Shown: piece by piece, positions 5,718-63,310 of the stretch | Layout: every line of letters begins with the position of its first letter | How positions within the stretch are numbered: the stretch's first letter is position 1 | Assembly (NCBI GenBank): GCA_016188475.1 | Contig: JACPHT010000006.1 | Location: 2,330-66,329 of the forward strand | From: Candidatus Uhrbacteria bacterium | GTDB taxonomy: Bacteria > Patescibacteriota > Patescibacteriia > UBA9934 > GWF2-40-263 | Length of the DNA stretch: 64,000 nucleotides | Direction of reading: 5' to 3' | The notes under the pieces: model-generated | Database searches by the model: none | What the model was told of the DNA's origin: nothing | What the model saw: only the letters and a program-made list of their open reading frames with translations | Made by a program: the position numbers and the translations under genes

Positions 5718-5747
5718 AACTTGCGTGATAAACGCGCGACTATTCTT

Positions 5748-7224: not shown

Positions 7225-7473
7225 ATGTCTTATACAATTTATATTCTGCGCAGTCTCAAAAATGAGAAACGATACATTGGTTATACTGGGAAAAGTGTTG
7301 ATGAAAGATTCCATGAACATTTATCCGGTACGAATCAATGGACTCGACAGAACGGTCCGTTCATTTTGATTCATACTGAGTCATTCAATGACAAAGAATC
7401 AGCCATTAAACGTGAACGTTTTCTAAAAAGCGGTCAAGGTCGTAAATGGCTTGATGAAAATATTCGGGGGTAG
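7225..7473 (+). CDS. GIY-YIG nuclease superfamily protein (YhbQ/UPF0213-like)
   Basis: YTIYILRS...RYIGYTGKSVDERFHEHLSG matches the GIY-YIG core. Its stop codon TAG (7471-7473) lies inside the tRNA 5' exon. Confidence 0.7.
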   Translation: MSYTIYILRSLKNEKRYIGYTGKSVDERFHEHLSGTNQWTRQNGPFILIHTESFNDKESAIKRERFLKSGQGRKWLDENIRG

Positions 7474-38868: not shown

Positions 38869-38910
38869 AAATGGACAATCAATGTTGTCATCTTGAGCGA
38901 AGGTAAAGTT

Positions 38911-38937
38911 ACAGCCTTCGACTGGCTCAGGCAATAA
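38911..38937. repeat. intergenic palindromic element family 1 (IPE-1), half-site copy
   Basis: ACAGCCTTCGACTGGCTCAGGCAATAA, the reverse complement of the TTATTGCCTGAGCC(T/A)GTCGAAGGCTGT consensus. Confidence 0.6.
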
Positions 38938-38975
38938 CTTTACCGAAGTCGAAAGATCTCGTATATAATGACAAT

Positions 38976-40541: not shown

Positions 40542-40645
40542 TTATTGCCTGAGCCTGCTTGCCGACCATAGCCTCTGGCGAAGGTTGGTCGAAGGCTGTA
40601 ACGCATTGTGAATAGTTATTGCCTGAGCTTGTCGAAGGCCGTACG
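40541..40645. repeat. IPE-1, two tandem copies
   Basis: GTTATTGCCTGAGCCTG...GTCGAAGGCTGTAA at 40541-40599, then AGTTATTGCCTGAGCTTGTCGAAGGCCGTA at 40614-40645. Confidence 0.65.
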
Positions 40646-40688: not shown

Positions 40689-40837
40689 TACGAATCGCTT
40701 TTTGCTTTCGATTGCTAGCGAGTTGAATCTTTCGATCCTTTTTCCATTGTGTGCGAACTTGTTTTCTTTTGCCTGGCATAGAGTAAAAAAGTGATGAAGT
40801 GATGGAGTAAAGGAGTTAGTTTGTAGCCCACGGCTTT

Positions 40838-40886
40838 TCCGGCCTAAAGGCTGGATCCGGCTCCGCCGGAAGCCGTGGCTGTGTGA
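40838..40886. repeat. intergenic palindromic element family 2 (IPE-2: CCGGCCTAAAGGCCGGATCCGGCTCCGCCGGAA)
   Basis: cacggcttttccggcctaaaggctggatccggctccgccggaagccgtg. Related copies at 46751-46790 and 57571-57607. Confidence 0.55.
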
Positions 40887-40972
40887 AAAGATAATACTTG
40901 ATCGTTCGCTTACCGTCAAATTTAGCAAAAAGATAAGTCAATTTTATATTATTTCTCTGCTCAAATCAACAA

Positions 40973-41130
40973 TTGATCGTCCGTTTCCTCCGTTCGTCGA
41001 CATTCGCAGACGGCCAGTATAGACGTTTGGTAATCATCATCGTTTCTCGCCGTCGAGAAATAAGCCGCCGACGCTTACGTTGGTTTTCATCAACGTCCAC
41101 GGCGGCGGTCAAGAACGGAGGAACCGGACG
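40973..41130. repeat. ~160-nt highly structured element at the edge of GC-rich island A, containing a conserved 75-nt motif
   Basis: Outer arms gatcgtccgtttcctccgttc (40973-40993) and gaacggaggaaccggacgatc (41110-41130) are reverse complements with one mismatch. Inner hairpins tttctcgccgtcgagaaa and gccgccgacg...cgtccacggcggcgg. The core at 41049-41120 recurs at 54955-55030. Confidence 0.5.
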
Positions 41131-41191
41131 ATCATAAATAAAATGAACCTCCGCTGACAGTGTGTCAGACAGAGGTTCGAGAGCGACAGGG

Positions 41192-41479
41192 CTACTCAGC
41201 GAGTTTTGCGTCGTAGCCAGGACAACTGGCGTTCCGGTGGTAGATCGAGTCACACCACTCATTGTGTTCGGCGAGCTGTTTCGCTAGCACCTCGGGCGGG
41301 ACGATCACTTGTCCGTGCTTCGGACATCCCACGTTCTGGTGGTAGATCTGGTCACACCACGCCAGATGGGACACCTCGTCCAACTCTTCGTCAGTCGGGG
41401 TTGTCGAAATCTTTCCACACGCGAGAACCACGACCAGCACCATCAGAAGTGCCAGGACAAGATTCATCATTCCCTTCAT
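41192..41479 (-). CDS. small Cys-rich lipoprotein with an internal duplication (GC-rich island A)
   Basis: Lipobox LVVVLAC. Duplicated WCDQIYHQNVGCP / WCDSIYHRNASCP. Confidence 0.4.
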   Translation of the reverse strand: MKGMMNLVLALLMVLVVVLACGKISTTPTDEELDEVSHLAWCDQIYHQNVGCPKHGQVIVPPEVLAKQLAEHNEWCDSIYHRNASCPGYDAKLAE

Positions 41480-41595
41480 CTTTTGGCCCTCCTTTTGAGC
41501 CTAACTTACCGTCAAATAGTACCACATTTTAGCACTTTTGTCAAGGATTTGAAAGAAAAAACTCTCCGCACAAAAGTATTGTTTGGAGAGCGAGA

Positions 41596-42978
41596 TTATT
41601 CATCGGATACTGGAAAGATCGTTGAAAGCATGATTATTGTCTGCCGGAGATTTTCCGGAGGTACGTTTGCGAATTCAGCGATGGCATTTATGAAAAGAGC
41701 ACGATATTCCGACGGTATTTGCACGATAGATGCCGCGACTTTGAGCGTTGAAGCCACCCATGGGTATTCGTCAGTTACCAGCCGTATGTCGCTCTGACCA
41801 ATCTCTTGACCCGACACACTTGTGGCATCTGCACCATCATCATCCACTTCAACGTCAGTCTCGGCTTCGGACCCAGTTTCGAATTCTGTCTCCTCGTTCT
41901 CTTCGTCGCCATCTGGTGCTGGCTTGGCTTGATCGCCAGCTTCGCCGTCTTGGGTGTTGTGGGTTTCGTCCTCTTTCGGTCTTATCCTCTTTTCATTAGG
42001 ACCATATTCACTCATGTCTCTGGTCCACTTGTTCCCTGCGATCAGGCCTTCGTCAACCATACTTTTGAATAACTGCCGTGCGTAGAATGGAGTGCTTACA
42101 CCTATAATTTTTGCAAGTTCTCCTGCATCATTGAGGTCAAACTCGTATTTGAGTTTCTCTTCCGTTGTATCCCCGGGAGTGTTCTTCCATGCTGTACCAA
42201 GCCGTGTCCAATATCCAGAACGATGGACTGTTGCATTTTGTGAATCCCTTTTTTTATCTTTTCTTTCTGTTGGTGCTGGTGGTGCACTAGCCTCTGATCT
42301 TAAAAGGTCTATCGCCTTTTGCAGTAGCTTGTAGCGGGTCTCGCCGCCATCGCTCGTGCGCTCAAACCAACCTCTTCTGGAAGCATTATTCAAACGATAG
42401 ATTGCATCGATCCGTGTGGTCACTTTTTCAGAATTTGAGTTGATAATCCTAGCGATGACTCGTTCTTCTTCGGCCCAACCTGCTTCATCAGCGCATTTCT
42501 TTATTGCCGAGGCCAGCTCAATTTGCACAGCATTGGATTTTTCTCTCATGTTCGGTTCCCCTTTCCCCAGTTTAGACGGTTGTTCATCCGGTTGAGTATT
42601 TTCATTTGGTGGATCATCAACTGGCGGTGTTTCTTCATCTGGCTCTGATCCGGATTCTTGTTCAGACGCTGGCTCTTGAGCTGGTTCTGATTCTTGCGTT
42701 TGTTCATGCGCTCGCTCTGGAGGTGGCGGCGGCGTAGGTTTGCGCTTTACCGAAGGCGAGGCTTCTTCCGACATCTCGTCAAGTCCATCTGCTGAAATTG
42801 CAAACTCGATTCTATTACGTCTGCCTTGCGGACAACGCCAGCACGCCGTTCTGCGTTTTTCAAATGCATTGGCATCACAGTAATCATCAATGCATTTTTG
42901 CATAGATTGCTGTTTTCTTCTCGCTCTACAATAGAAATTGTTCTCAAGAACGCTTGGCCCGTCTGGCACGGTCTGCAT
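41596..42978 (-). CDS. hypothetical protein with N-terminal Cys cluster, acidic Pro-rich linkers and two wHTH-like regions (GC-rich island A)
   Basis: CIDDYCDANAFEKRRTACWRC (CxxxC...CxxC) and a long D/E/P-rich low-complexity stretch. No recognised family. Confidence 0.45.
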   Translation of the reverse strand: MQTVPDGPSVLENNFYCRARRKQQSMQKCIDDYCDANAFEKRRTACWRCPQGRRNRIEFAISADGLDEMSEEASPSVKRKPTPPPPPERAHEQTQESEPAQEPASEQESGSEPDEETPPVDDPPNENTQPDEQPSKLGKGEPNMREKSNAVQIELASAIKKCADEAGWAEEERVIARIINSNSEKVTTRIDAIYRLNNASRRGWFERTSDGGETRYKLLQKAIDLLRSEASAPPAPTERKDKKRDSQNATVHRSGYWTRLGTAWKNTPGDTTEEKLKYEFDLNDAGELAKIIGVSTPFYARQLFKSMVDEGLIAGNKWTRDMSEYGPNEKRIRPKEDETHNTQDGEAGDQAKPAPDGDEENEETEFETGSEAETDVEVDDDGADATSVSGQEIGQSDIRLVTDEYPWVASTLKVAASIVQIPSEYRALFINAIAEFANVPPENLRQTIIMLSTIFPVSDE

Positions 42979-43096
42979 GCATACATCCTTTCCAATGGTA
43001 TTGCTGACCTATGAGTTGATGTAAGGAACGAACATTATTTGAAACTAGCATCCTATACGGTTTATTGTCAATGTCACTCCATCGCTTCTTCACTCT

Positions 43097-43546
43097 GTGC
43101 TATACTTTCCTTGTATGTTTGATATTGCCAGTCTTCTTTTTTCAGATTCAAGCGTAGTTTTGTTTGGCGCCACACTTTTTGTATTCGGCGCCATACTTTG
43201 TTTAACGCTTTTGCTTAAACAAAATCCAAAACCAGTTCGAACGCTTATTGTTCTTCTTATAATTTTGTTTTTTCTTTTGCTTGGAATGGTAAGTTTGGAT
43301 TTGTTCGGAAGACGCACAGTGTATGCGTTTGAAAATTACGCGTCGTTTTCAGAACTTTTATCAACTCATCGCTTGCTTATTATTCAGCTTCCGTTTGTTT
43401 TGATCGTAAGCTCTATCGTTACATTGATCGTGTACGGCGAAAAAATTGCAAACGATCACGCGAAGGAATATCGCTATGCAATTATTGCTTCTGTTTGGAT
43501 CACGTTTTTAACGTTTTTGTTAATCGGTCTTGAATCAATGTTATAA
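43097..43546 (+). CDS. integral membrane protein
   Basis: Four hydrophobic helices. Confidence 0.4.
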   Translation: MLYFPCMFDIASLLFSDSSVVLFGATLFVFGAILCLTLLLKQNPKPVRTLIVLLIILFFLLLGMVSLDLFGRRTVYAFENYASFSELLSTHRLLIIQLPFVLIVSSIVTLIVYGEKIANDHAKEYRYAIIASVWITFLTFLLIGLESML

Positions 43547-43551
43547 AAATC

Positions 43552-43615
43552 GTTATTGCCTGAGCCTGTCGAAGGCTGTATTCAATTTTATCCATTCGAT
43601 GAGCTCACGGAATAA
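43552..43615. repeat. IPE-1 copy (imperfect palindrome)
   Basis: GTTATTGCCTGAGCCTGTCGAAGGCTGTA, followed by the degenerate inverted half CCATTCGATGAGCTCACGGAATAA. Confidence 0.65.
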
Positions 43616-43626
43616 AATTTATTTAT

Positions 43627-43983
43627 ATGAAACTTTTTGAACGATTTCGAAATCGAATTCACGAGTCAATCGCGCTTGGTGCGTTCATGTCCGCGGCTCT
43701 GACTTTACAAATCGCTTGGATCAGCAATCTTCTTGTTCATCGAAGTGAAACCGTACGCGATCTTTTTAACATTTTGCCTTCCATTGGTCCTATCTCTGGA
43801 TTATATTTCAAAACAATTATCGCATACGTATTTTTATTCGGTTTGTCAGTTTTATTTTTCAAAGGCCGCGATTGTTCTGTTTGGCGCGGTCGAGTTTTTG
43901 GATTTTTTTATATCTCCATCGTCATGTTTTTTGTACTAACGATGCCGGTTGTTTACGAATTTTCAGTGAGTGTTAGCGAATAG
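43627..43983 (+). CDS. integral membrane protein
   Basis: Three hydrophobic helices. Confidence 0.4.
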   Translation: MKLFERFRNRIHESIALGAFMSAALTLQIAWISNLLVHRSETVRDLFNILPSIGPISGLYFKTIIAYVFLFGLSVLFFKGRDCSVWRGRVFGFFYISIVMFFVLTMPVVYEFSVSVSE

Positions 43984-44079
43984 TGGATGTGGTGAATTTG
44001 TTTATCACACTTAACTACCGATCGGTAGTTAAGTGTGATTCCTTGTATTTTTTTTCAGGATCGGTTAAGTTTTCAGTCT

Positions 44080-45543
44080 ATGGATATTTCAGTTAAAAAA
44101 GGGAAAATTTTTGAACAAATTTGCGATGTTTTGATTCTTTTCATTTTTCAGGGTTCAGAGCATTCAGACGATTTCATTTCAACAGTTCTTAAAGAGGAAA
44201 AGTTCAAAGGCAAACTTTGCCAGTCTGTTTTAATTCGAACCGATGGTAAACTTCCAGCAAAACGAGTTTTGGTTGTTGGACTTGGAAAAAAAGAAGAGTT
44301 TGATCTTCAAGCTTTGCGACGCGCTTCTGCTGCTGCATATTTGACTGCAAAAGCGATTGAACCAAAAACAATAGCATTAGAGTTTTTTAGCGCGCCAAAT
44401 TTTAACGCAAAACAAGTTGCACAAGCGGTTGTTGAAAGCATCCGTCTTTCTGATTACAGTTTTACAAAATACAAAAAAGAAAATGGAAACGGAAAAAATA
44501 AAACGCAAAGTTTTGTTTTTGTTACAGACGATGGACGAATACTTCGACAAGCACAGCAAGGAATTGAACACGGAGAACTTGCGGCGCGCGCAACAATTTT
44601 TACACGCGATCTTGTTAACACTCCAGCGCAAGATATGCGTCCGATTGATCTTGTTGAATCTGCAAAATCAATCGCAAAAGGGAATGGCGCGATTCGTGTT
44701 CGTGTGTTTGATAAAGCTCAACTTGAAAAAATGGGAGCTGGAGGAATTTTGGGAATTGCAAAAGGCTCTGATGATCCGCCGTATTTAGTTCATTTAACAT
44801 ATCGTCCAAAGAAAAAAACAAAAAAGAAAATTGCGATTGTTGGAAAGGGAATAACGTTTGACTCTGGTGGTTTGTCTCTCAAACCAGCAGCCAGCATGTT
44901 TACAATGAAAATTGACATGGCAGGCGCGGCTGATGTTTTAGGTTTGTTTTCCGTGATAGATGAGATCGCGCCAGCAGTAGAAGTTCATGGAATTTTTGCC
45001 GCAGTTGAACACATGCCGTCAGGGTGCGCTGTTCGTCCTGGTGATATTTTGCGCGCTATGAACGGAAAAACAATGGAGATATTAAATACAGACGCGGAAG
45101 GTCGCGTGATTTTGGCTGATTCGCTTTTGTATGCTGTTAAACAAAAACCAGACATGATTATTGATCTAGCTACTTTGACTGGCGCTTGCATGGTTGCGCT
45201 TGGAGATGAAATTACAGGTGTTTTATCAAACGACGCAAAACTCGCGAATCGTGTTTTGACTGCCGCGGCTGGAGCCGAAGAAAAAATGTGGGAACTTCCT
45301 CTTGAAAAAAATTACAAACAATTTTTAAAATCAGATGTTGCTGATTTGAAAAATATCGGTGGAAAGTATGGAGATGTTATTTCAGCCGGTTTGTTTTTAG
45401 AAGAGTTTGTGAATAAAACTCCTTGGGCACATTTGGATATTGCTGGTCCATGTTTTGCAGAACGTGATTTTGATGAATATACAAAAAAAGGCGCGACCGG
45501 TCACGGTGTACGCACCTTGATTGAATTTTTGAAAGCGTTCTAG
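44080..45543 (+). CDS. pepA: leucyl aminopeptidase (M17 family)
   Basis: VGKGITFDSGG and NTDAEGRV(IL)ADSL signature motifs. Start set at MDISV. Confidence 0.85.
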   Translation: MDISVKKGKIFEQICDVLILFIFQGSEHSDDFISTVLKEEKFKGKLCQSVLIRTDGKLPAKRVLVVGLGKKEEFDLQALRRASAAAYLTAKAIEPKTIALEFFSAPNFNAKQVAQAVVESIRLSDYSFTKYKKENGNGKNKTQSFVFVTDDGRILRQAQQGIEHGELAARATIFTRDLVNTPAQDMRPIDLVESAKSIAKGNGAIRVRVFDKAQLEKMGAGGILGIAKGSDDPPYLVHLTYRPKKKTKKKIAIVGKGITFDSGGLSLKPAASMFTMKIDMAGAADVLGLFSVIDEIAPAVEVHGIFAAVEHMPSGCAVRPGDILRAMNGKTMEILNTDAEGRVILADSLLYAVKQKPDMIIDLATLTGACMVALGDEITGVLSNDAKLANRVLTAAAGAEEKMWELPLEKNYKQFLKSDVADLKNIGGKYGDVISAGLFLEEFVNKTPWAHLDIAGPCFAERDFDEYTKKGATGHGVRTLIEFLKAF

Positions 45544-46073
45544 TCATTTTGACTTTTTCCGAGTGTTTTTTCTCCGGCTTTCCATTCCAAAGGACATCGT
45601 TCGCCTGTTTGAAGTGCCTGAAGTACACGAAGTGTTTCAGTTACTGATCGTCCAATTCCAGGGTCTTGATACAACGCATATCGCAAAATACAGTCAGGAT
45701 CAATAATGAAAGTTCCGCGAAGGGCAATGCCATTGTCTTCCAGTAAAACTCCATAGTCGCGCGAAATCGTTCGAGTGATATCCGAAAAAAGTGGATATTT
45801 CAACTCACCCAAATCTTTGAGCCATGCTTTGTGTGAATAAACAGAGTCTGTTGATCCGCCAAGCACATCAGCGTTCAATTGTTTGAATTCGTCGTATCGC
45901 GCAGAAAAGCCAGTGATTTCTGTTGGACACACGAACGTGAAATCAAGCGGATAGAAAAATAAAACCAGCCATTTGTTTTTGTAATCATTCGAGCCAACTT
46001 TGATAAATTCTCCGTTGCCGCTGACAGCTTCAGCTTGAAAATGTGGCGCGACTTTTCCGATAAAATTATTCAT
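45540..46073 (-). CDS. peroxiredoxin (2-Cys Prx/AhpC-like)
   Basis: FTFVCPTEI peroxidatic-Cys motif. 177 aa. Confidence 0.85.
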   Translation of the reverse strand: MNNFIGKVAPHFQAEAVSGNGEFIKVGSNDYKNKWLVLFFYPLDFTFVCPTEITGFSARYDEFKQLNADVLGGSTDSVYSHKAWLKDLGELKYPLFSDITRTISRDYGVLLEDNGIALRGTFIIDPDCILRYALYQDPGIGRSVTETLRVLQALQTGERCPLEWKAGEKTLGKSQND

Positions 46074-46693
46074 AATGATATATTTTTGACTTTTTCAAAA
46101 ATTTGATTCGCCATATCCCAATTAAAGTTTTTCCAAAAGTCTGCGATGTAAGCCGCGCGATCTGAACCGTAATCAATAAAATAAGCGTGTTCGTAAACGT
46201 CCAACACGATAATCGGGATGCATCCCCATATTCCTCCTTGGTTGTGCGCGTCAGCTCCGTAGATTTTCAGTCGTCCAATGTGAGTATCCCACGCAAGAAC
46301 AACCCAGCCTCGCATTGCCATGCCAGTTGCTGAAAATATCGTCGTGAATTTTCCAAGCGATCCGTATTTTTCAACGATCGCATCAACAAGAACACCTTTC
46401 GCTTCGCCTGTTCCACCAAGTCCATCAAAATAATGTTCATGCAGATAAACCCCGTTTGTCGCAAAAGTTTCTCCGTCTTTCAAACCTCGTAATTGAGAGT
46501 ATGTTTGATTCGCTGTTTCCAATCCTGTCCCAGACGCGATCATTTCTTTCAATTGCTCCGCGATCTCTTTCATTTTTTTCACATATCCGACATAAAGCTT
46601 GTCATGATGAATTTCAATTGTCTTTTTTGAAATCCCGGTTAAATCTTTTGTAAAAGGAAGCGGCTTTGGTTCGTATTGTGTTTGGGAAGGCAT
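46070..46693 (-). CDS. Fe/Mn superoxide dismutase
   Basis: HHDKLYVGY and DVYEHAYFIDY motifs. Start set at MPSQTQ; the longer track ORF extends into the repeat region. Confidence 0.85.
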   Translation of the reverse strand: MPSQTQYEPKPLPFTKDLTGISKKTIEIHHDKLYVGYVKKMKEIAEQLKEMIASGTGLETANQTYSQLRGLKDGETFATNGVYLHEHYFDGLGGTGEAKGVLVDAIVEKYGSLGKFTTIFSATGMAMRGWVVLAWDTHIGRLKIYGADAHNQGGIWGCIPIIVLDVYEHAYFIDYGSDRAAYIADFWKNFNWDMANQIFEKVKNISL

Positions 46694-46705
46694 AAATCGA
46701 AAACA

Positions 46706-46966
46706 AGAAGTTAGAGAAGTTAAAGAAGCTGAAGAAGTTGTAGTGGAAGTCTTTTCCAGCCTAAAGGCCGGATCCGGCTCTGCCGGAAACCTTTCAGAAT
46801 AAGGAAATGGAAAAAATTGTTGACAACTTTTCACAGGGGTGAAAAAACGTCAACACTTCAGACCGAGCTTCAACTTTATATGTCGCTATGTTGTAGAAGA
46901 AGGTTTTTCCTTGTAAAAGTTAGAGAAGTTAGAGAAGCTGGAGAAGTTAGAGAAGCTGGAGAGGCT
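46706..46966. repeat. repeat-rich intergenic region: tandem AGTTAGAGAAGCT-like 13-mers flanking an IPE-2 copy
   Basis: aagaagttagagaagttaaagaagctgaagaagttg at 46706-46745. IPE-2 at 46751-46790. agttagagaagttagagaagctggagaagttagagaagctggagagg at 46916-46965. Confidence 0.5.
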
Positions 46967-47008
46967 TGTGGTAGCTGTCTGAATCCTACGGTACAATAAT
47001 AACACTTT

Positions 47009-47929
47009 ATGAATCGTCTTCAAATGATTAGTGGAATTTTAAGCATTGTTATTATTGGAAGTATTATTGTTTATTTTCAATATCGTTTTTATCGTACGCC
47101 AATCGCGTCAACTCAAGACCAAGCTGTTTTAGTTTCTGGAGGTTCGTTAAAAGACGGTATTCCTTCAATTGACGAACCGAAGTTTGAATCTGTTTCAGTT
47201 GCTGATCAATATCTTGATGATAAAGGTTATGGACTTTTTGTTTCATTAAACGGCAAACAACGATTTTATCCATATCAAATTCTTGTTTGGCATGAAGTTG
47301 TGAATGATGTGTTTGGAAAAACTCCAATTTTGATTTCATATTGTGCATTGTGTTTTTCTGGAAGCGCTTATGACCGGACAGTAAACGGAGTTGTTGTTCA
47401 ATTTGGTGTGTCTGGAAAACTCATGGACAATCATCCTGTTTTGTATAACAAACAAACAGATGAACTTTTAACTCCGCCTTTTGAAACACAACTAAAACCT
47501 GTTTTATCACTTGTAATGACCTGGGCGAATTTCAAAAATAATTTTCCAAACGGACAGGTTTTGTCGCGCGAAACAGAATTTGTGCGAGACTACACTGCAG
47601 ATCCGTACAAAAATTATGACACAAACAATGCTGTCTTATTTCCTGTTAGTCATCAAGACGATCGCTTGTCCGTGAAAACAGTTGTGTTTGGATATATAAA
47701 CGATCAAACGCAAAAAGCATATCCACTTGACTTGATTAAATCAGCCGGAACAGTTAATGATGTAGTTGGAAATGAAGAAGTCGTAATTTTTTGGGATGAG
47801 AAGCTTGAAACAGTTCGTGGATTTTCTAAACAAGATGGAAAAGAAGAGCCTATAATTTTGCGAAGTTTTTATTGGTTTAGTTGGGCAACGTTTCATCCAA
47901 AAACAGAACTTCTAGAAATTAATGAATAA
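47009..47929 (+). CDS. conserved hypothetical exported protein (DUF3179-like)
   Basis: N-terminal TM segment and a WHEVVND...SYCALC region. Family call is from memory and is weak. Confidence 0.4.
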   Translation: MNRLQMISGILSIVIIGSIIVYFQYRFYRTPIASTQDQAVLVSGGSLKDGIPSIDEPKFESVSVADQYLDDKGYGLFVSLNGKQRFYPYQILVWHEVVNDVFGKTPILISYCALCFSGSAYDRTVNGVVVQFGVSGKLMDNHPVLYNKQTDELLTPPFETQLKPVLSLVMTWANFKNNFPNGQVLSRETEFVRDYTADPYKNYDTNNAVLFPVSHQDDRLSVKTVVFGYINDQTQKAYPLDLIKSAGTVNDVVGNEEVVIFWDEKLETVRGFSKQDGKEEPIILRSFYWFSWATFHPKTELLEINE

Positions 47930-47943
47930 AAATTTTTCCTATT

Positions 47944-48618
47944 ATGCCCACCCTCTACATTGTCGCAACACCAATTGGAAATTTGAAAGACTTAAGCGAG
48001 CGTGCGAAAACCATACTTGCTTCTGTTCACACTGTCTTGTGTGAAGACACGCGAGTTACAAGTAAACTTTTTAAAACCATTGGATCGAAACCAAAACTTT
48101 TGTCGTTCCATCAACATTCAGACAATACAAAAACGAATATAGTGATAAAACTCCTTGAGCAAGGCAACGATCTCGCACTCGTCACAGATGCTGGAACACC
48201 AGGAATTTCAGATCCGGGTGGAAAATTGATCGAGACGCTTGTTAAACATTTTGGTTCAGAGCTCACGATCGTGCCGATTCCAGGGCCAAGCGCTGTTATC
48301 GCGGCTTTGTCAGTAAGCGGTTTTCCAACTGATGAATTTATTTTCCTCGGATTTCCTCCAAACAAAAAAGGAAGACAAAATTTTTTTGATCGACTTTCTG
48401 AATACGAAATAACGATTGTGTTTTATGAAAGTACACATCGCATTTTGAAAACACTCGACGAAATTAAAAAACGTTTTCCAAATTGTCAGCTTGTTGTTTG
48501 TCGTGAATTAACAAAAGTGTACGAGACTATATATCGCGGAACAGCCATTGAAGTGACAGAAAAGTTAAAAGCAAGTAGTATTAAAGGCGAATTTGTAATA
48601 GTCATCTCGAATCATTGA
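47944..48618 (+). CDS. rsmI: 16S rRNA (cytidine1402-2'-O)-methyltransferase RsmI
   Basis: LYIVATPIGNLKDLS...VLCEDTR...GTPGISDPG (tetrapyrrole-methylase fold, RsmI pattern). Confidence 0.8.
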   Translation: MPTLYIVATPIGNLKDLSERAKTILASVHTVLCEDTRVTSKLFKTIGSKPKLLSFHQHSDNTKTNIVIKLLEQGNDLALVTDAGTPGISDPGGKLIETLVKHFGSELTIVPIPGPSAVIAALSVSGFPTDEFIFLGFPPNKKGRQNFFDRLSEYEITIVFYESTHRILKTLDEIKKRFPNCQLVVCRELTKVYETIYRGTAIEVTEKLKASSIKGEFVIVISNH

Positions 48619-48620
48619 AG

Positions 48621-48685
48621 AATATTCCCTGAGCCTGTCGAAGGAATAAAATTTATTACTGCCTTCGACTAGCTCAGGCAATAAA
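48621..48685. repeat. IPE-1 copy (hairpin)
   Basis: ATTCCCTGAGCCTGTCGAAGG at 48624-48644 pairs with GCCTTCGACTAGCTCAGGCAATAA at 48661-48684. Confidence 0.65.
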
Positions 48686-48690
48686 TTTTT

Positions 48691-50136
48691 ATGAACCGAT
48701 TTTATATCTCAACAGCCATTCCATACGTAAACGCTGATCCGCACATAGGTTTTGCGCTTGAAATTATTTTAACTGATGCAGTAGCGCGTTATTATCGTCA
48801 CAAACTTGGCGCCGAAAATGTTTTTGCGCTGACTGGAACAGATGAAAACAGTTTGAAAAATGTTCGTGCCGCTGAAGACGCCAACGAAGATGTCGCATCT
48901 TATGTTGAACGTTATGCCAACGAGTTTCGATCTTTGAAAGACATACTTGATCTTTCTTTTAATGATTTCATTCGAACTCACGAAGAACGTCACATTCACG
49001 GCGCTCAAAAACTTTGGAGCGCGTGCAAACCAGAAGATATCTACAAAAAAATGTATCGCGGTTTGTATTGTGTCGGATGTGAAACTTTTTACACGGATAA
49101 AGAAGTTCCAGATGAAATTTGTCCTGAACACAAAAAACCTCTCGAGGTAGTTGAAGAAGAAAATTATTTTTTCAAACTTTCAAATTATCAAGATCAACTC
49201 ATTGAACTGATTGAAAAGGGAGATTTACGTATTGTTCCAGAATCAAGAAAAAATGAAGTTTTGAGTTTTATCAAACAAGGTCTTGAAGATTTTTCGATTT
49301 CTCGTTCGCAAGAACGCGCGAAGCATTGGGGCGTCACAGTTCCAAACGATGAATCTCAAGTGATGTATGTTTGGTTTGACGCGCTTTCAAATTACATAAC
49401 AGCGCTTGGTTATGCAGACGACACTGAAACCTACAAAAAGTTTTGGATAGAAAACGATCATCGTGCGCACGTGATTGGAAAAGGAATTTTGCGTTTTCAC
49501 GCTGTGTATTGGCCAGCGATTTTATTGTCCGCTGGAGTTCCTCTGCCAAACGAACTTTTTGTTCATGGCTACATAACAGTTGAAGGTGAAAAAATGTCAA
49601 AGTCGCTTGGGAACACAATCCATCCAAAAGCTCTTGTAGATGAATTTGGAACAGACGCTGTGCGATATTATTTTCTTCGTGAAATTCCTTCACATGGTGA
49701 CGGAGATTATTCAAAAGCTCGTATGGAAGAACGTTATGGCGAACTTGCAAATCAGCTTGGAAATTTGGTTGGACGTGTCGCGACAATGGCTGTTAAGTAT
49801 TTCAACGGACAACTTGATGACACAAACAAAGATTGGTCAGCGAAAGAAACTGCGCTTGATACACACATGAAGAATTATGATTTGCGATCATATATAGATG
49901 AAGTGTTTGAGGTTGTATCAGACGCGAATGAACTAACGGACAAAAAATCACCATTCAAATTAGTGAAGGAAGATTCAGCATCCGCGAAAGCGGTTTTGTC
50001 AGAGCTCGCTGATATGATTCGATTTATTGCTCGATCACTTTTGCCAATAATTCCACACAGTGCAGAGGAAATTCTCCGCAGATATGGTAAAGTAATAGAG
50101 GTTGGTGAGCCTTTATTTCCGCGAAGAGATAAATAG
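48691..50136 (+). CDS. metG: methionine--tRNA ligase
   Basis: HIGH-type motif (PHIGFALE), Zn knuckle CVGCETFY...CPEH, KMSKS. Confidence 0.9.
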   Translation: MNRFYISTAIPYVNADPHIGFALEIILTDAVARYYRHKLGAENVFALTGTDENSLKNVRAAEDANEDVASYVERYANEFRSLKDILDLSFNDFIRTHEERHIHGAQKLWSACKPEDIYKKMYRGLYCVGCETFYTDKEVPDEICPEHKKPLEVVEEENYFFKLSNYQDQLIELIEKGDLRIVPESRKNEVLSFIKQGLEDFSISRSQERAKHWGVTVPNDESQVMYVWFDALSNYITALGYADDTETYKKFWIENDHRAHVIGKGILRFHAVYWPAILLSAGVPLPNELFVHGYITVEGEKMSKSLGNTIHPKALVDEFGTDAVRYYFLREIPSHGDGDYSKARMEERYGELANQLGNLVGRVATMAVKYFNGQLDDTNKDWSAKETALDTHMKNYDLRSYIDEVFEVVSDANELTDKKSPFKLVKEDSASAKAVLSELADMIRFIARSLLPIIPHSAEEILRRYGKVIEVGEPLFPRRDK

Positions 50137-50187
50137 TGTTTGTTTCTCGGTCCTTTCAGACCTCTCAGTCCTTTCAGGCTTTTCACT

Positions 50188-50685
50188 ATGACATTCATTG
50201 ACATTTTAATCATAGTCATCATTGCCGCGTTTGTTTTCTTTGGTTTCTTTTTTGGATTTGTTCATACATTTGGAAGTTTGATTGGAACTATTGTTGGAAT
50301 TTTTATTGCGTCGCATCTTGTTGATCCGACGTTTAGCATGTTCGGTTTTTTGCTTGGCAACGGAGATTTTGCAAAAGTGATAGTGTTCATTATTTTATTT
50401 TTGCTCACATCTCGCATTATCGGTTTACTGTTGTGGTTTGTTAATGGTTTGTTTTACGCTTTTGCGTTCATACCGTTTGCTGGAATGTTTAATCGTTTAA
50501 TCGGCGCGCTGTTCGGTTTTGTTGAAGGAGTTGTTGTGGTAGGCGTCATAATTTTTTACGCAATGCAAATTCTTCCGGACGACACACTTCTTTTCGCGCT
50601 CGAAGGATCAGTAATGGCTAAATATCTTGTTGCTGCGATGATGGCTTTGCAAGTGTTTTTTCCAGAAGGAATGAAAGTGAAATAA
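50188..50685 (+). CDS. CvpA-family membrane protein
   Basis: Four TM segments. Conserved position between metG and tatD. Confidence 0.5.
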   Translation: MTFIDILIIVIIAAFVFFGFFFGFVHTFGSLIGTIVGIFIASHLVDPTFSMFGFLLGNGDFAKVIVFIILFLLTSRIIGLLLWFVNGLFYAFAFIPFAGMFNRLIGALFGFVEGVVVVGVIIFYAMQILPDDTLLFALEGSVMAKYLVAAMMALQVFFPEGMKVK

Positions 50686-50686
50686 T

Positions 50687-51547
50687 ATGCTCTTCGATAC
50701 CCATTGCCACGTTCAATTTCATTCGTACAAAAATGACATGGACGAAGTTATCAAACGCACCTTGGAAAAAGGTGTTTTTATGATTACGGTTGGAACGCAA
50801 AGCGACACAAGTCGAACAGGACTTGAGGTTGCTGAAAAATACGAAGGTGTGTGGGCTTCGATCGGACTTCATCCTTATCATCTTCATAAACAAGAATTTG
50901 CAGATGAAAATGAAACCGTTCATACTCGAACCGAAAAGTTTGATTTAGATTTGTTTCGAAAACTCGCGCAACATCCAAAGTGTATTGCGGTAGGAGAGTG
51001 TGGTTTGGATTATTTTCACATGCCTCCAAACGTTGATCGTGAAGAAGTGATTCGAGAACAAAAAGAAACAGTTCGCGCGCAATTTGATCTTACGACTGAA
51101 ATGAATTTGCCAGTTATTATTCATTGTCGCGATGCTTATGAAGATCAACTTGAAATGGTTGAAGAATATGTGAAAGAAGGGAAGTTGGCTCGACGTGGTG
51201 TTGTGCATTGTTTTGTTGGAACACAGGACATCGCAGATCGGTTTTTAGATTTAGGATTTTATATTTCATTCACTGGAATTTTAACTTTTCCACCACGTAA
51301 GAGTGAAAAAGGGGAAGATGGTTTGTCGCCAATACAACGCATAGCAAAAAATGTTCCACTTGAACGTCTACTTGTTGAAACAGATGCGCCGTATTTAACA
51401 CCTGTTCCGTATCGCGGAGAAAGAAACGAACCATGGATGGTTCAATTTGTCGCTGAAAAAATCGCAGAGCTAAAAGGGATAGATGTTGATGAAGTCGAGC
51501 GAGTCACAACAGAAAATGCGAAAAAATTATTTTTGTTGTCATTCTGA
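50687..51547 (+). CDS. tatD: TatD-family metal-dependent DNase
   Basis: N-terminal FDTHCH plus GECGLDY, HCR and ETDAPY motifs. Confidence 0.85.
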   Translation: MLFDTHCHVQFHSYKNDMDEVIKRTLEKGVFMITVGTQSDTSRTGLEVAEKYEGVWASIGLHPYHLHKQEFADENETVHTRTEKFDLDLFRKLAQHPKCIAVGECGLDYFHMPPNVDREEVIREQKETVRAQFDLTTEMNLPVIIHCRDAYEDQLEMVEEYVKEGKLARRGVVHCFVGTQDIADRFLDLGFYISFTGILTFPPRKSEKGEDGLSPIQRIAKNVPLERLLVETDAPYLTPVPYRGERNEPWMVQFVAEKIAELKGIDVDEVERVTTENAKKLFLLSF

Positions 51548-51574
51548 GCGACAGCAAAGGATCTTGAATAAACA

Positions 51575-51676
51575 AAGATCGTGATGCTACATCTCCGGGC
51601 CAACGCCGTGCCTGCCTTTGGCAGGGACTCCTCGCCGTTGTTCCCTGCGACGTAGCATCACGCTCTTTGTTTTTTT
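51575..51676 (+). terminator. long structured hairpin terminator with a conserved core (...CCAACG...CGCCGTTGTTC...)
   Basis: 18-bp outer stem aaagatcgtgatgctacatc / gacgtagcatcacgctcttt, followed by T7. The core is shared with 63226-63310. Confidence 0.5.
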
Positions 51677-51757
51677 GATATTCATTTTTCCGAGTGGAAT
51701 TGAAAGAGTTGTTGGAAACAAAAAGCAGTAATGAAAGATTCACTACTGCAAAGAGAG

Positions 51758-52780
51758 CTAGCCGACATAGCGACGCTTAAATTCATTTGGGTGTGATGAG
51801 TTTAACCCGGCCTCAATGTCTTTGATGCACTGTCGCAGGAGTGCTCCAATGATTCTACCCTTGGCTTCGTAAACTCCACCTAGGTAGCTGTCCCGGAGTT
51901 GCGCAGCCATCGAGATTCTGCTCGCGTCTTCACGAAGGTAAGCATCTAGTAATGCTGTATAGATCCCTTTCCACTGCCTGGTCTTGACGCATTCGCGCAT
52001 CTCGCGTGTGATTGGATTTCCCAAGGCAGCGATCTTTCTTACCTTGATTGCTGCGATTAGTTCAGTTAGTCCATTTCTTTCTATTGAGTCCTCGGTCATT
52101 TTCGCTATGTACGCATCTGGATCATCAAAGAATTCGACCAACTGGGTTGGATTAAGCCTTTGACGTCCTTGTTGTCCATCGTCTCGATCTCCACTGCTCT
52201 TTTGTACGTCTCTTCGTTCGCGCCCCGTATCGTTTCTACGGCTCATCTCGTCTCCCTGAGGTTGTGATGCAGGTTGTTTCGATTGTACACCAGCAGGCGT
52301 GGCTGGAAGAATCGGTGTTGTGCGAGGCGGTTGTGCAACTTGCACCGGGCCGCTCAACATCCGACTTGCCCCTGATTGGACACTGACTGTTGCTGTGTCA
52401 GCAACCGGTTCTACGGCCGGTTGAACAACATCGATCGGTTCAGCCGGCACAGCTGCTTTCTGTTTGTGATTTTCCGCGATTTCTGCCAGGCCGAGTTTTC
52501 GCGGATCCTCGTCTTTTAGTTCGGCGACGTATGCATCAGAATCAATACAATACTGCAGAAGTGCATTTTGCACTCGGATACAGTACGCCTTACCTTCGTC
52601 TGATACGTAATTGGAAGAAAGAATTTCCTCCAACTCCTCATCTGTTGGTTCGATCCTTGAGATAAGAATGTTGCGAAGCTCGTCTGTTGGCTCGTCATCG
52701 CCGAAGAAGGCGAAGACGGCGTCAAGATAAGTAGGCATTTTTTCCTCCCTCGGCTCAAAACCGAGATTGAAACCTACCAT
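51758..52780 (-). CDS. hypothetical protein (GC-rich island B), acidic with P/Q-rich linker
   Basis: 340-aa ORF at about 55% GC. No recognised motifs. True start may be MPTYLD (52738). Confidence 0.4.
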   Translation of the reverse strand: MVGFNLGFEPREEKMPTYLDAVFAFFGDDEPTDELRNILISRIEPTDEELEEILSSNYVSDEGKAYCIRVQNALLQYCIDSDAYVAELKDEDPRKLGLAEIAENHKQKAAVPAEPIDVVQPAVEPVADTATVSVQSGASRMLSGPVQVAQPPRTTPILPATPAGVQSKQPASQPQGDEMSRRNDTGRERRDVQKSSGDRDDGQQGRQRLNPTQLVEFFDDPDAYIAKMTEDSIERNGLTELIAAIKVRKIAALGNPITREMRECVKTRQWKGIYTALLDAYLREDASRISMAAQLRDSYLGGVYEAKGRIIGALLRQCIKDIEAGLNSSHPNEFKRRYVG

Positions 52781-52869
52781 AAATTAGTCAGAATGTCAAG
52801 CAATCCTTGACATTTTTTTGATTTTCTGCTAAATTCATTCTCTGGCAAAAGCCAGTTTGAAAGGGAAAA

Positions 52870-54411
52870 ATGGAACGAAAGCAATTGTTGCTTCAGGAAT
52901 CTGGTTTGATCGTCAAGGGCGGTGGTGCTACGAAACCGCCGACCGCGGCATCAAAGGGCGAAATCGCACAGCCGTCTCGTTTCACCCAGATGCTCGCGAT
53001 CTGGGGCGAGCTCATTGATATCGCGGTTCTGACAGACAACAGGCGTCGTGTTCCGATCGAAGTGCGCAAGCGCGAAATGACGCGTCGATTCGTCCGCGAT
53101 CCGCGCGATCCGCAAGTTCCTCTTCTCGTTAAAGCGATGATCTTCGCTGAAAACGTGACTCGATTCAATCGGGAAACCAAGGAGCATGAACTTCAACCCG
53201 GCATTGGACTCGGGTACAAGGCAGAGATTCAGGTTTCTGTCAACAAAGGAAGTGACGAGACAGTCAAGGCTGTTCCGCACATTCTCGTTGACGGAGCCGG
53301 CGGAATGATTCCGTACGGCACATTCGAGGAGTCTGGTGGAAAGACGGTCGTGAACGCGCGCGAACATTTTTGCATGGTTCTGTGGCCAATGAAGAAAGGT
53401 CAGCCGTTCAGACTCCTGCCGCTCGGTCTCGCGTCTGCTTCACGGCTCGATATGTGGAACCGCGTGGCACAGGGTCTTCCAGGCCGCGGTCTTCCGACAA
53501 TCGAGCCAATCCGCCATAACCTTCTTGCCAAGGACGGTGCTCGCTACCTCGTGTACACGCCGCCAGGAATGTGGCAGTTCGATGGCGAAGAAGGCAAGGC
53601 GAGCTACCACTACGGCCACATCTGTGGCCAGACAGCTCGCGTTATCGAAAAGGGCGGATTTCCGCCGTATGACGACGAAGAAAACTGCACGTTCTCCGAA
53701 CAGAGAGTGTTTCTCGTTGAGCTTGGCGAGCGTTCGATCGGCCTGCAATACGTGGGTCGGAAGGGCAAGGTCAAGCTTCTCGAAGGTACTATCGATCTCG
53801 GTCAATCTCTCGCGGTTGAACCGTTCGAAGCGCTCGGAGTGTCGGTTCTCACAGCCAATCCGAGCAAGCAGTCCCGAACAGCTTTCGAGCTGGCAGGGCG
53901 TGGTGCGTTCACCCTGGACAATCCGCTCTTCGCCTACGCCGTCAGGATAGGACTGGTTGATCCAGTTGTGCTCGAAGATACACAGTCTGTACGTTCTTCA
54001 CTCAATCGGCTTGCGAGTCTCGTTGTTTCAACTCTTCGCGATCAGCTCGATGACATCAAACGGCGAGTTGTGGAACAGCTCTGTCGTGATCTGCTCCCGG
54101 ATTCTGAAATCGTTCTGGATGGCAAGTCGGCCGAAGAAGTTTGGCACCGCAATGGCGGCGAAGATTTCCTCGCAAAATGGATCAACGAGCGGATCGAAGG
54201 CGACTTCGACTGGAGCTCGTGGGTTCACCGCGGAGTTCGGATGGAGCTCCTGAAGAGAATCTCCGAACGCGCTCAGAATGTCGGAACTCCTCCCGCTCTT
54301 CCTGTGACCTTTGTCAATGCGGCTCCTATCGTAGCAGAAGTTCTTGGCCTGGTACCCACGCCAGCCAAGCGCATTCGCAAGCCTCGCGCTTCGAAGCCGG
54401 CACAGGCCTAG
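52870..54411 (+). CDS. hypothetical protein (GC-rich island B), 513 aa
   Basis: Long ORF at about 57% GC. No recognised family. Followed by the hairpin gtagtgatttctttcactac. Confidence 0.45.
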   Translation: MERKQLLLQESGLIVKGGGATKPPTAASKGEIAQPSRFTQMLAIWGELIDIAVLTDNRRRVPIEVRKREMTRRFVRDPRDPQVPLLVKAMIFAENVTRFNRETKEHELQPGIGLGYKAEIQVSVNKGSDETVKAVPHILVDGAGGMIPYGTFEESGGKTVVNAREHFCMVLWPMKKGQPFRLLPLGLASASRLDMWNRVAQGLPGRGLPTIEPIRHNLLAKDGARYLVYTPPGMWQFDGEEGKASYHYGHICGQTARVIEKGGFPPYDDEENCTFSEQRVFLVELGERSIGLQYVGRKGKVKLLEGTIDLGQSLAVEPFEALGVSVLTANPSKQSRTAFELAGRGAFTLDNPLFAYAVRIGLVDPVVLEDTQSVRSSLNRLASLVVSTLRDQLDDIKRRVVEQLCRDLLPDSEIVLDGKSAEEVWHRNGGEDFLAKWINERIEGDFDWSSWVHRGVRMELLKRISERAQNVGTPPALPVTFVNAAPIVAEVLGLVPTPAKRIRKPRASKPAQA

Positions 54412-54494
54412 TTCTCTCGCAGTAGTGATTTCTTTCACTACTGTTTTTTTGTTTTTAATTGACAATTCTTGGTTGAGGGCTATTGAAATATTTT

Positions 54495-54572
54495 TATTAT
54501 TGCCTGAGCCTGTCGAAGACTGTAGGCAAACAAGCCAAATTTTACCCATTCGACAGGCTCAGGGAATAAAAT
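54495..54572. repeat. IPE-1 copy (long hairpin)
   Basis: TATTATTGCCTGAGCCTGTCGAAGACTGTAGGC pairs with CCCATTCGACAGGCTCAGGGAATAAAA. Confidence 0.65.
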
Positions 54573-54954
54573 TTGGCTTTTGTAAGCCTCTCGCTACCAG
54601 GTAGCGAGAAGATATATTCTAATTCACCAATCACACAATTTTTTTTAGAAACAACAGATATTCGTAATCTATTATATGAGCAGTTGCATCATGTTGGAAG
54701 GAGTCGAGGAGGAGTAAAGAAGCCAACTGCTTGGCTTCGTACCTCCGAGACGGGTTGGACGATGTCTGGCTGAAAGCCAGACCGTACAACACCTACGGCG
54801 AAGAGTCCGTTGGCCCGGAGACACGGTTCGATTGTCATATACTCGTCAACCAGTCTGTTGGTTCCATATTCAAATCACATATAAAATTGTTTAGACTCTC
54901 TGTTCGCCGACATCCGGAGCCGACCTGTACAAACACTTGTTAACTACGTCGATT

Positions 54955-55030
54955 CACGTCGGCGAGGACTAAGCCGCCGCCACTAACTCTGGTTGTCATA
55001 AACGTCCACGGCGGCGGTCAAGAACAGATA
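54955..55030. repeat. conserved structured 75-nt motif (second copy), at the right edge of GC-rich island B
   Basis: cgtcggcgaggactaaGCCGCCGCC...aaACGTCCACGGCGGCGGTCAAGAAC. The 3' arm is identical to 41092-41117; the 5' arm differs. Confidence 0.5.
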
Positions 55031-55149
55031 GTCTAAACGATTTTTCCACCTTCTTGACCCTCTTTTCAAAAAACTGTACACTATCGGCGCCTTTTAAAGT
55101 ATTACGCAACGCAGAGATTGCTTCGCTTCGCTCGCAATGACATTGGTTT

Positions 55150-56476: not shown

Positions 56477-56516
56477 ATAATGCAGAACAGAAAACGGTAG
56501 CTTGTTATTAAAAATA

Positions 56517-56591
56517 ATTACCCGAACTAATCGAAGGCTGTAATAGAAATTGATAATCAATTTATCCCTTCGATAGGCTCAGGGGATAAAA
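56517..56591. repeat. IPE-1 copy (degenerate) between atpE and atpF
   Basis: ATTACCCGAACTAATCGAAGGCTGTAAT ... TCCCTTCGATAGGCTCAGGGGATAAAA. Confidence 0.55.
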
Positions 56592-56630
56592 TATGTGAAA
56601 TTAACAAGCTACTACTTTTTTTCTTCATAT

Positions 56631-63188: not shown

Positions 63189-63216
63189 CACCCATAACGG
63201 GTGCTTTTTCTTTTTT
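63188..63216 (+). terminator. rho-independent terminator (gcaccc-ataac-gggtgc + T-run)
   Basis: Immediately after the 62106..63188 stop. Confidence 0.5.
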
Positions 63217-63225
63217 CTGTCATCT

Positions 63226-63310
63226 AGAGCGATTTGTGTCATGTCTCCGTGCCAACGGACTCTTCGCCGTTGTTCACTCCGACATGGCACAAACCGCTCT
63301 TTTTGGTCTT
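63226..63310 (+). repeat. long structured hairpin with the same conserved core as 51575-51676
   Basis: Outer stem agagcgatttgtgtcatgtc / gacatggcacaaaccgctct. Core tccgtGCCAACGg...ctcttCGCCGTTGTTCact. T-runs follow. Confidence 0.45.

Follow-up and report, generated by a model that had tools for sequence, protein, structure and literature searches.

A dispersed repeat family with a covarying three-way-junction fold in Candidatus Uhrbacteria

Two copies of a GC-rich repeat stand beside two GC-rich islands in a 64,000-nt stretch of contig JACPHT010000006.1 from a Candidatus Uhrbacteria bacterium (hereafter the window), and they raise the question of what unit is repeated, on which strand it folds and whether it delimits the islands. 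An initial annotation, made from the sequence alone, described a 75-nt structured motif with an invariant 3′ arm and a covarying 5′ arm at the island edges, and proposed a structured RNA or DNA site such as an attachment site, an origin, a cis-regulatory RNA or a ribozyme-like element. We found that this motif is one half of a longer non-coding element, here called X, which represents a new family outside Rfam and of a known kind of small structured repeat. Members of the family share a fold on one strand, lie between genes and close to gene ends, differ in presence between related genomes and form lineage-specific subfamilies. In the reading that we favour, X is probably a non-autonomous dispersed repeat resembling miniature inverted-repeat transposable elements (MITEs), with selection acting on its single-stranded form, most probably a transcript.

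Extent, fold and folded strand of X

The repeats quoted in the initial annotation were real and correctly placed. The 24-mer ACGTCCACGGCGGCGGTCAAGAAC occurred exactly twice in the window, at 41093-41116 and 55002-55025, both times on the + strand (0.00 occurrences expected from 100 shuffles), and an 80-nt alignment of the two noted stretches showed 83% identity (direct-repeat family D6). A repeat search of the window showed that each stretch is enclosed by inverted repeats, with arms of 22-23 nt that are 91-95% complementary and 116-117 nt apart. Folding of the 171 nt around each copy gave the same architecture, with z = -8.6 for copy A and -6.6 for copy B relative to dinucleotide shuffles. 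Because both stretches lie inside closing inverted repeats and share a fold, we conclude that the unit is ~165 nt rather than 75 nt long. The 75-nt stretches are the 3′ halves of two complete copies on the + strand, A and B (Table 1), and the closing helix of 22-23 bp had been missed. The RNA fold of copy A reached -80 kcal/mol, and two covariance models matched copy A with 198 and 182 bits and copy B with 184 and 187 bits.

An exact 22-mer had no match in the GTDB genomes (one per species). In the same genomes a gapped pattern recovered six true copies of X, all in Uhrbacteria, together with seven chance matches in GC-rich coding DNA, and on metagenomes it yielded 15 further copies. Two of the GTDB copies were in genome JAGVFR (loci L014 and L017), which also contains locus L003, and three were in JACQXU, so that at least two to three copies per genome were recovered (window, two; JAGVFR, two; JACQXU, three). 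A covariance model built from three sequences gave 23 full-length + strand matches with 98-198 bits at 21 distinct loci; on the opposite strand the model gave only weak matches, which reflected nothing more than the palindromic nature of the closing helix. A second model, built from all 23, added no full-length copy in about 260 kb and found only truncated chimeras. Every copy came from genomes or metagenome contigs of Candidatus Uhrbacteria, a member of the candidate phyla radiation (CPR). X was not found in viral contigs, where an exact 20-mer gave only chance matches in GC-rich coding DNA and the single match to a looser gapped pattern was rejected by the covariance model. No family in Rfam 15 reached its gathering threshold for X in a scan of the whole window or in permissive scans over both copies; the best permissive match, Ms_IGR-4, had 24 bits against a 55-bit cut-off (E = 0.055) and covered only the GC hairpin.

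The fold was tested on a MAFFT alignment that had been fitted to no model. RNAalifold predicted 39 pairs for the family, 20 of them with compensatory changes, and all copies shared the same fold: a closing helix P1 formed by the two ends (20 pairs; 20-23 bp across copies), a short P2 (three pairs, GAC/GUC) and a three-way junction carrying P3 and P4. P3 is a long-range arm of six pairs with an outer extension of three pairs (P3ext), and P4 (seven pairs) is the GCCGCCG/CGGCGGC stem that the initial annotation had rightly recognised. Standard pairs made up 97.0% of pair cells, compared with 87.7% in shuffles, and 84 pair cells contained double changes; the observed values were reached by 0/500 shuffles on any of five measures. 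When partners were moved by 1-3 columns in a slid control, pairing was 26-54%.

Compensatory changes were present in 14/20 pairs of P1, whose ends read (A/T)GATCG...CGATC(T/A) and whose inner bases read CTGTTCG...GAACAG. The closing arms of copies A and B are almost wholly unlike each other, most positions being different with pairing retained, and 10 pairs are compensatory between the two. In P3, four of the six pairs were compensatory, with strong covariation at pairs 47-92, 49-90 and 50-89. Its variants were GACGGC/GCCGTC (copy A) and GCCGAC/GTCGGC (copy B), which differ by compensatory changes, as well as GACUGC/GCAGUC and GCAGAC/GUCUGC. Pair 41-97 of P3ext was found as CG, UA and GC. P4 contained one compensatory pair, 107-142 (C-G to U-A and back), by which the helix alternates between GCCGCCG/CGGCGGC and GCCGTCG/CGACGGC; this is a true compensatory pair, seen in 5/22 distinct sequences. 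The 3′ arm therefore also changes, contrary to the claim that it is invariant. The small local hairpin drawn earlier (tttctcgccgtcgagaaa) was not part of the conserved fold either; its bases form the 3′ strand of P3 and pair with partners ~40 nt upstream. The blocks GTTCG, GACAT, TAAGCCG and GGCGGTCAAGAAC had been demanded by one or both search patterns; GTTCG and TAAGCCG, each left free in one scan, were still invariant there.

To which strand does this fold belong? Within the helices of X, G·U outnumbered A·C by 24 to 4. The orientation of X relative to local GC skew was 8:10, that is, without replication-strand bias. Because orientation is random with respect to both GC skew and neighbouring genes, strand-biased mutation cannot explain the G·U excess, which indicates that it is the + strand that folds, in the form of RNA or single-stranded DNA (ssDNA). 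No reading frame was open across copies, and the GC content of X was about 50% compared with 41% in the host. The earlier proposal of a structured single-stranded nucleic-acid element was thus borne out: X has more than two copies, a fold supported by covariation and no Rfam family, and none of the outcomes that the annotation had listed against itself (only two copies, no covarying structure, an Rfam match) was seen.

Genomic position, gain and loss

Every copy of X was intergenic. Where the downstream gene was convergent, the distance of its stop codon from the matched 3′ end was between -11 and +16 nt in 11/12 cases, and the codon often overlapped the terminal (T)AGATCG or TGATCG of X. Spacers on the 5′ side were typically 60-470 nt and always exceeded the 3′ spacer; the 3′ boundary was sharp and the 5′ side variable. 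Five copies lay between convergent genes, five between co-directional genes in the same sense, five between co-directional genes in the opposite sense and one between divergent genes. The neighbours, named by reading translations and not by family search, looked ordinary (TopA, Era, GatB, HisS, a glycosyltransferase, a pilin-like protein, RNase H, an RNase J-like protein, S12 and the atp operon). None of those examined, mostly by eye, was recognisable as a transposase, an integrase or a reverse transcriptase (RT). L029 has two copies, separated by 3.8 kb that contain three ordinary genes. An atp operon promoter, TTGACC-17-TACACT, was conserved in all relatives and lies in the window at 55054-55082 (+), 10 nt past copy B. 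Because this promoter directly follows copy B, read-through from X would enter the atp operon.

Five copies at different loci carried a conserved 5′ extension of ~140 nt, consisting of a hairpin (AGAGACAGACGGGAC...GTCCCGTAACTGTCTCT) and a linker that ends in TTGAGGCTAAAGAGGAAGGTTTGTA, which brings X to about 310 nt. Because this extension lies outside P1 in some subfamilies, P1 may not be the true end of X. A 13-nt leader shared by copies A, B and L004 may likewise be part of X in this subfamily, as judged from the alignments.

Comparison of related loci showed that X is present at some sites and absent from their counterparts. The 513-aa protein encoded upstream of copy B has an identical counterpart, annotated as hypothetical, in a Candidatus Uhrbacteria bacterium, and homologues of the 513-aa protein (46-79% identity) lay on contigs that keep one gene order: tatD, a ~330-aa gene (-), a 513-534-aa gene and the atp operon. 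At this site X was found in L004/L005 only; L003, L007 and L008 keep the synteny without X, and the further orthologous loci L037-L040 had none. At the site of copy A, L003 retains the glycoside hydrolase gene, a 95-aa GC-rich gene and the downstream genes, and lacks both X and the 460-aa gene of the window, although the genome of L003 carries X at the two other loci named above. At L026 and L027, which have the same three genes, X stands in opposite orientations and at opposite ends of the shared intergenic region. Divergence within the filled and empty pairs (window versus L003/L007, L032 versus L014, L026 versus L027) was too great for junctions to be placed with single-base precision.

Copies A and B were 70.7% identical, and A was closer to L027 than to B. 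Subfamilies defined by P3 variants were common to different genomes, and JACQXU had a private subfamily with 85-92% identity, which indicates amplification within a lineage. Copy B and its counterpart in L004, which stand in the same gene neighbourhood, were 84.7% identical; around them, island DNA aligned at ~73% and most flanking intergenic DNA did not align.

The position at island edges held for this window and did not hold for the family. GC-rich neighbours were found only at copy A, at copy B and L004, at L017 and at L034, and most other copies stood beside host-like sequence of 36-45% GC. With GC-rich neighbours at only four to five loci, the association with islands is incidental rather than a property of the family. 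Island B (window 51758-54411) is a divergent pair of genes for proteins of 340 aa (-) and 513 aa (+), with 50-56% GC in a 41% GC genome. Five related Uhrbacteria loci have this pair in the same place, flanked by tatD and the atp operon, and only one of them (L004/L005) carries X there. The island proteins had no credible match in Pfam, PHROG, NCBIfam or PDB. Their only PADLOC match was a weak one for the 340-aa protein (ZorF/DUF2894, E = 1.7e-4), and the AlphaFold model of the 513-aa protein had a pLDDT (predicted local distance difference test score) of 47.9, too low for a fold search. Near copy A, the variable 460-aa gene is not contiguous with X. Among the neighbours examined we saw no integrase and no island-flanking direct repeat other than the two X copies, and the earlier remark that the motif does not behave as a simple terminal inverted repeat of the islands was correct.

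Three side observations concern these GC-rich regions. The 460-aa protein (window 41596-42978, -) has a long acidic, proline-rich low-complexity stretch and no family match, and a hairpin resembling a repetitive extragenic palindromic (REP) sequence stands in place of its gene at the syntenic L003 locus. Both island B genes end in similar terminator hairpins (51716-51761 and 54408-54454; 83% over 48 nt, inverted). Next to the X copy of L017, on the minus strand of the locus at about 550-4070 (3927-7447 in X orientation), lies a run of genes that, as read by eye, appear to encode a RuvB-like AAA ATPase, a JAB/MPN protein (HSHCDFSAGHSGGDHRDE), a ThiF/E1-like protein and a small protein resembling ubiquitin. 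The run may serve ubiquitin-like conjugation or defence, and the N-terminal motif of the RuvB-like ATPase recurs in an upstream gene of 63% GC.

Family Y and the possible nature of X

The genomes that contain X also contain a second family, Y, an ~80-nt hairpin with a conserved core (GGGAACAACGGCGAAGAGUCCGUUGGCCCGGAGAC/GGGAACAACGGCGAAGAGTCCGTTGGCCCGGAGAC) and a covarying closing stem. Nine copies gave 26 pairs, 10 of them compensatory, and no match to Rfam was found. Y occurs in both orientations downstream of genes, and its design, a long covarying stem with a conserved core, is that of X. A degenerate Y lies 60 nt upstream of copy B, and a Y copy follows each of the island B terminator hairpins. 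In X/Y chimeras, Y takes the place of the P3/P4 interior of X: the X 5′ part (P1, P2 and the start of P3) is followed by GATTCACAA, Y and GACRCTTGTCTTCCTAAACGACT, to which L025 adds the X 3′ part. The same junction sequences were found at three loci. At L026 and L028, a linker related to that of the 5′ extension follows a Y hairpin and contains TTGACC-18-TATTAA. Two independent Logan assemblies of the same organism (L041, L042) end ~80 nt after a 360-aa gene (62106-63188), at a Y copy (window about 63190-63270), which suggests that the repeat breaks assemblies.

What kind of element is X? It has the traits of a MITE: it is ~165 nt long and non-coding, occurs at 21 distinct loci in intergenic DNA and has paired ends of 20-23 bp in every copy. 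Bacterial MITE-like repeats measure 100-200 bp, with terminal inverted repeats and long stem-loop transcripts; for Correia elements, cleavage of the transcript stem-loops by RNase III is a proposed means of regulating neighbouring mRNAs (PMC2229807). The enterobacterial ERIC/IRU (RU-1) and YPAL (RU-2) repeats resemble X as dispersed intergenic repeats of 127-168 bp whose RNA ends pair into a long stem-loop, and YPAL, like X, lacks TA termini and is not AT-rich (PMC2229807). ERIC and YPAL differ from X in their short terminal repeats (7 bp of contiguous pairs), their target-site duplications and their host phylum, and no multi-arm conserved core has been described for them.

The Correia/NEMIS elements of Neisseria share with X a length of about 100-155 bp, a non-coding, multicopy and intergenic nature, a frequent place at gene ends, and terminal inverted repeats of about 24 bp that form a long stem in transcripts. 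Unlike X, they have TA termini and TA target duplications; X, unlike them, has a three-way-junction core with covarying helices and one-strand selection, and is GC-richer than its own host. The bcr1-type repeats of the Bacillus cereus group, dispersed and about 155 bp long, are reported to be transcribed, to have an RNA structure with compensatory changes and to show a specific target duplication. They are not known to resemble X in sequence or structure.

The absence of target duplications, together with the conserved multi-helix core and the one-strand selection, makes an RNA-level role of X probable; a role at the level of ssDNA is less likely. A factor encoded elsewhere would copy X into intergenic DNA, preferentially just beyond gene ends. 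Upon transcription of the + strand, the ends would close to a duplex of ~22 bp and set the conserved junction core apart as a compact RNA module. The P1 duplex, whose length is enough for RNase III, may serve as a processing or stabilising hairpin, a role that the position at gene ends would fit, and the junction core may offer a surface for a propagating or binding protein. Of these steps, transcription and processing by RNase III are inferences only, as are a factor acting in trans and its way of copying X.

Several observations weigh against this MITE-like reading. The flanks of all copies showed neither a target-site duplication nor consistent TA termini, unlike most bacterial MITEs, and searches with the P1 arms in about 260 kb returned only X copies and X/Y chimeras and no parent insertion sequence with X ends. 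No identical copies were found at different loci (best non-orthologous pair, 92%), so that recent movement is not demonstrated. As for a transcript, no sigma-70-like promoter stood at a fixed distance upstream of X; a TTGAGG-17-TAAGAT sequence in three long-form copies is not conserved, and a start from it would fall inside P1. A terminator scan found no intrinsic terminator after copy A or B, and 3′ flanks were T-rich in only about 6/22 distinct copies. Because co-directional genes run with X in five cases and against it in five, read-through cannot explain the one-strand selection. Finally, the blocks forced by the search patterns skew the sample toward conserved members and make block invariance partly a search artefact.

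Two other readings that also place the function of X in RNA are possible, although we consider each unlikely. X, possibly with Y, may be the RNA part of an unrecognised RNA-based system of CPR bacteria, such as a self-propagating RNA gene that is copied by way of an RNA intermediate, a ribozyme, or a guide or scaffold RNA of an enzyme encoded in trans. If so, the three-way junction would be no passive hairpin but a core for catalysis or for loading of a protein. Alternatively, X may be a family of chromosomal small RNA genes, paralogous and structured, with a role in the cell, for example protein sequestration or scaffolding, and spread by ordinary duplication and loss instead of transposition. 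One-strand structural selection fits such genes, as do the similarity of copy B to its L004 counterpart where most flanking intergenic DNA cannot be aligned, the larger 5′ spacer, as if the unit included an upstream promoter, and a promoter-like site at copy A (40922-40950). However, the copies of one genome occupy unrelated loci that lack X at syntenic sites in relatives, both orientations occur in the same intergenic region (L026/L027), truncated and chimeric copies exist, no promoter is conserved and the family is restricted to a narrow clade.

A DNA-only MITE appears slightly more doubtful. P1 would then represent transposase-bound terminal inverted repeats, covariation would arise from copying between the arms or from a few master copies, and X would have no function as RNA or as a single strand. 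The 22-bp arms with their conserved outer (A/T)GATCG tips and inner CTGTTC, and the multicopy, intergenic and non-autonomous state of X, agree with this, and much of the covariation does separate subfamilies common to several genomes. Nevertheless, P3 and P4 (6-7 bp, with strands 30-36 nt apart) covary too, and copying between arms is not expected to maintain them. A strand-symmetric DNA process should also give equal numbers of G·U and A·C in randomly oriented copies rather than the excess observed, and target-site duplications are missing.

We regard as improbable that X is an ssDNA mobile element of the IS200/IS605 type (palindrome-associated transposable element, PATE) or the attC type, with its folded + strand as the substrate of an HUH or tyrosine recombinase. 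As in PATEs and attC sites, the fold of one strand matters more than sequence in X, G·T is tolerated and target duplications are absent; the sharp 3′ boundary beside a variable 5′ side also fits, and the place right behind stop codons recalls attC sites, which lie just past the stop codons of cassettes. Against a PATE, the 5′ junction has no conserved tetra- or pentanucleotide target and orientation is unbiased relative to GC skew. Against attC, the ends of X lack the RYYYAAC/GTTRRRY core sites and cassette arrays are absent. The neighbours examined included no recognisable tnpA, tnpB or intI, and both candidates were rejected. Least credible, and contradicted by the loci compared here, is the idea of the initial annotation that X serves the GC-rich islands as an attachment site, an origin or a boundary: both window copies, L017 and L034 do adjoin GC-rich genes, but island B is syntenic in five loci of which four lack X, the 95-aa gene beside copy A is conserved in L003 without X, the variable 460-aa gene is separate from X, most other copies stand among housekeeping genes of normal GC content, and no integrase was recognised.

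Other candidates were also tried and rejected. The junction bases of X, inspected by eye, do not fit a hammerhead-like core, and no ribozyme match was found in Rfam. P1 did not behave as a guide, its arms matching their own flanks no better than the flanks of other copies (6.86 versus 6.78 nt). Retron msr-msd RNA resembles X in its pairing ends (a1/a2) around internal stem-loops, its length of about 160 nt and a conserved G after the closing helix's 5′ strand (in X, GTTC|G). However, retron RNA is single-copy and adjoins its RT gene, whereas X is multicopy and its inspected neighbours, mostly read by eye, were housekeeping or of unknown function, none RT-like. An intrinsic terminator was rejected on the terminator scan of both copies, and a tRNA-like gene on the ARAGORN result, which gave 0 tRNA or tmRNA genes in the window.

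Other features of the window and significance of the repeat families

The window and its relatives contain further repeats. A REP-like family of paired inverted units of ~30 nt (TTATTGCCTGAGCCTGTCGAAGGCTGTA and its complement) occupies many intergenic regions and occurs in L003 as well. Two copies of a GC-rich hairpin of 54 nt (…GGCCTAAAGGCTGGATCCGGCTCCGCCGGAAGCC), 83% identical, stand at 40821-40874 and 46738-46791; L003 lacks the first, which in the window is situated between copy A and the glycoside hydrolase gene. A repeat of two GC hairpins (GGCGGGGTGCCCACACCCCGC...GCGGGGTCAAGGGACCCCGCC) was found in different intergenic regions, at L007 3495-3550, L027 about 3180-3235 and L032 about 830-905 (-), and in L027 it lies inside the 5′ extension of X. 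Runs of a 9-nt unit (AGAAGTTAG/AGAAGCTGG) form two blocks 200 nt apart within 46697-46973. The sole window match at Rfam gathering scores was a group I intron at 7410-7733 (+) (RF00028, 83 bits, E = 1.3e-19), and L043, a Logan contig of the same organism, has a GIY-YIG gene at its far end, just past the group I intron region.

Table 1. Coordinates of X, Y and related repeats (window positions unless a locus is named)
Feature	Position	Strand	Remarks
X copy A, complete (P1 to P1)	40974-41134	+	Inverted repeat I19, 22 nt, 95% complementary
Copy A, 5′ leader CTCAAATCAACAA	40961-40973	+	Common to copy B and L004 in alignments
Copy A, P1 5′ strand	40974-40995	+	Partner 41113-41134; inverted repeat and fold
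Copy A, P2 5′ strand GAC	40999-41001	+	Partner GTC 41108-41110; invariant across the family, GACAT and GGTCAAGAAC being demanded by the search patterns
Copy A, 5′ strands of P3ext (TTC) and P3 (GACGGC)	41003-41014	+	Partners GAA 41057-41059 and GCCGTC 41049-41054
Copy A, 3′ strands of P3 and P3ext	41049-41059	+	Start of the 75-nt motif
Copy A, P4 hairpin	41064-41106	+	GCCGCCG 41064-41070 with CGGCGGC 41100-41106; 29-nt distal part between
Copy A, P1 3′ strand	41113-41134	+	Inverted repeat and fold
X copy B, complete	54883-55044	+	Inverted repeat I22, 23 nt, 91% complementary
Copy B, 5′ leader TTCAAATCACATAT	54870-54882	+	Same leader as at copy A; alignments
Copy B, P1 5′ strand	54883-54905	+	Partner 55022-55044
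Copy B, P2 5′ strand (54909-54911) and P3ext/P3 arm	54909-54968	+	TCC and GCCGAC pair with GGA and GTCGGC
Copy B, P4 and P2 3′ strand GTC (55017-55019)	54973-55019	+	P4: 54973-54979 with 55009-55015
Copy B, P1 3′ strand	55022-55044	+	Inverted repeat and fold
5′ extension of X (approximate)	L027 3120-3263; L014 1630-1772; L025 12663-12800 (-); L022 1876-2015 (-); L029 12293-12430 (-)		
Chimeric or truncated X	L025 5990-6166; L026 8765-8925; L027 398-612		
Y in the window	63208-63303	-	
Y in the window	about 51572-51672	-	With insertion
Y in the window	54797-54822	+	Degenerate
Y elsewhere	L003 11651-11746; L004 14262-14357; L007 444-539; L025 6022-6117; L026; L028 3305-3400		Three copies in L026
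REP-like units	38909-38941; 40537-40643; 43548-43620; 48617-48689; 54492-54574; 56510-56594		

CPR genomes are small and compact, and their non-coding content is almost undescribed. X is a structured multicopy element in such genomes with unusually clean covariation, and Y is a second family of the same design. Together, X and Y indicate that Uhrbacteria genomes hold dynamic families of structured repeats, often at gene ends. The X family supplies a covariance model for annotating such loci and is a likely cause of assembly breaks in these genomes. Our results also remove a false lead, because the GC-rich islands of the window are not delimited by X. X is a tractable candidate for understanding how small structured repeats spread without an evident nearby transposase, and repeats of this kind at gene ends could shape the ends and stability of transcripts.

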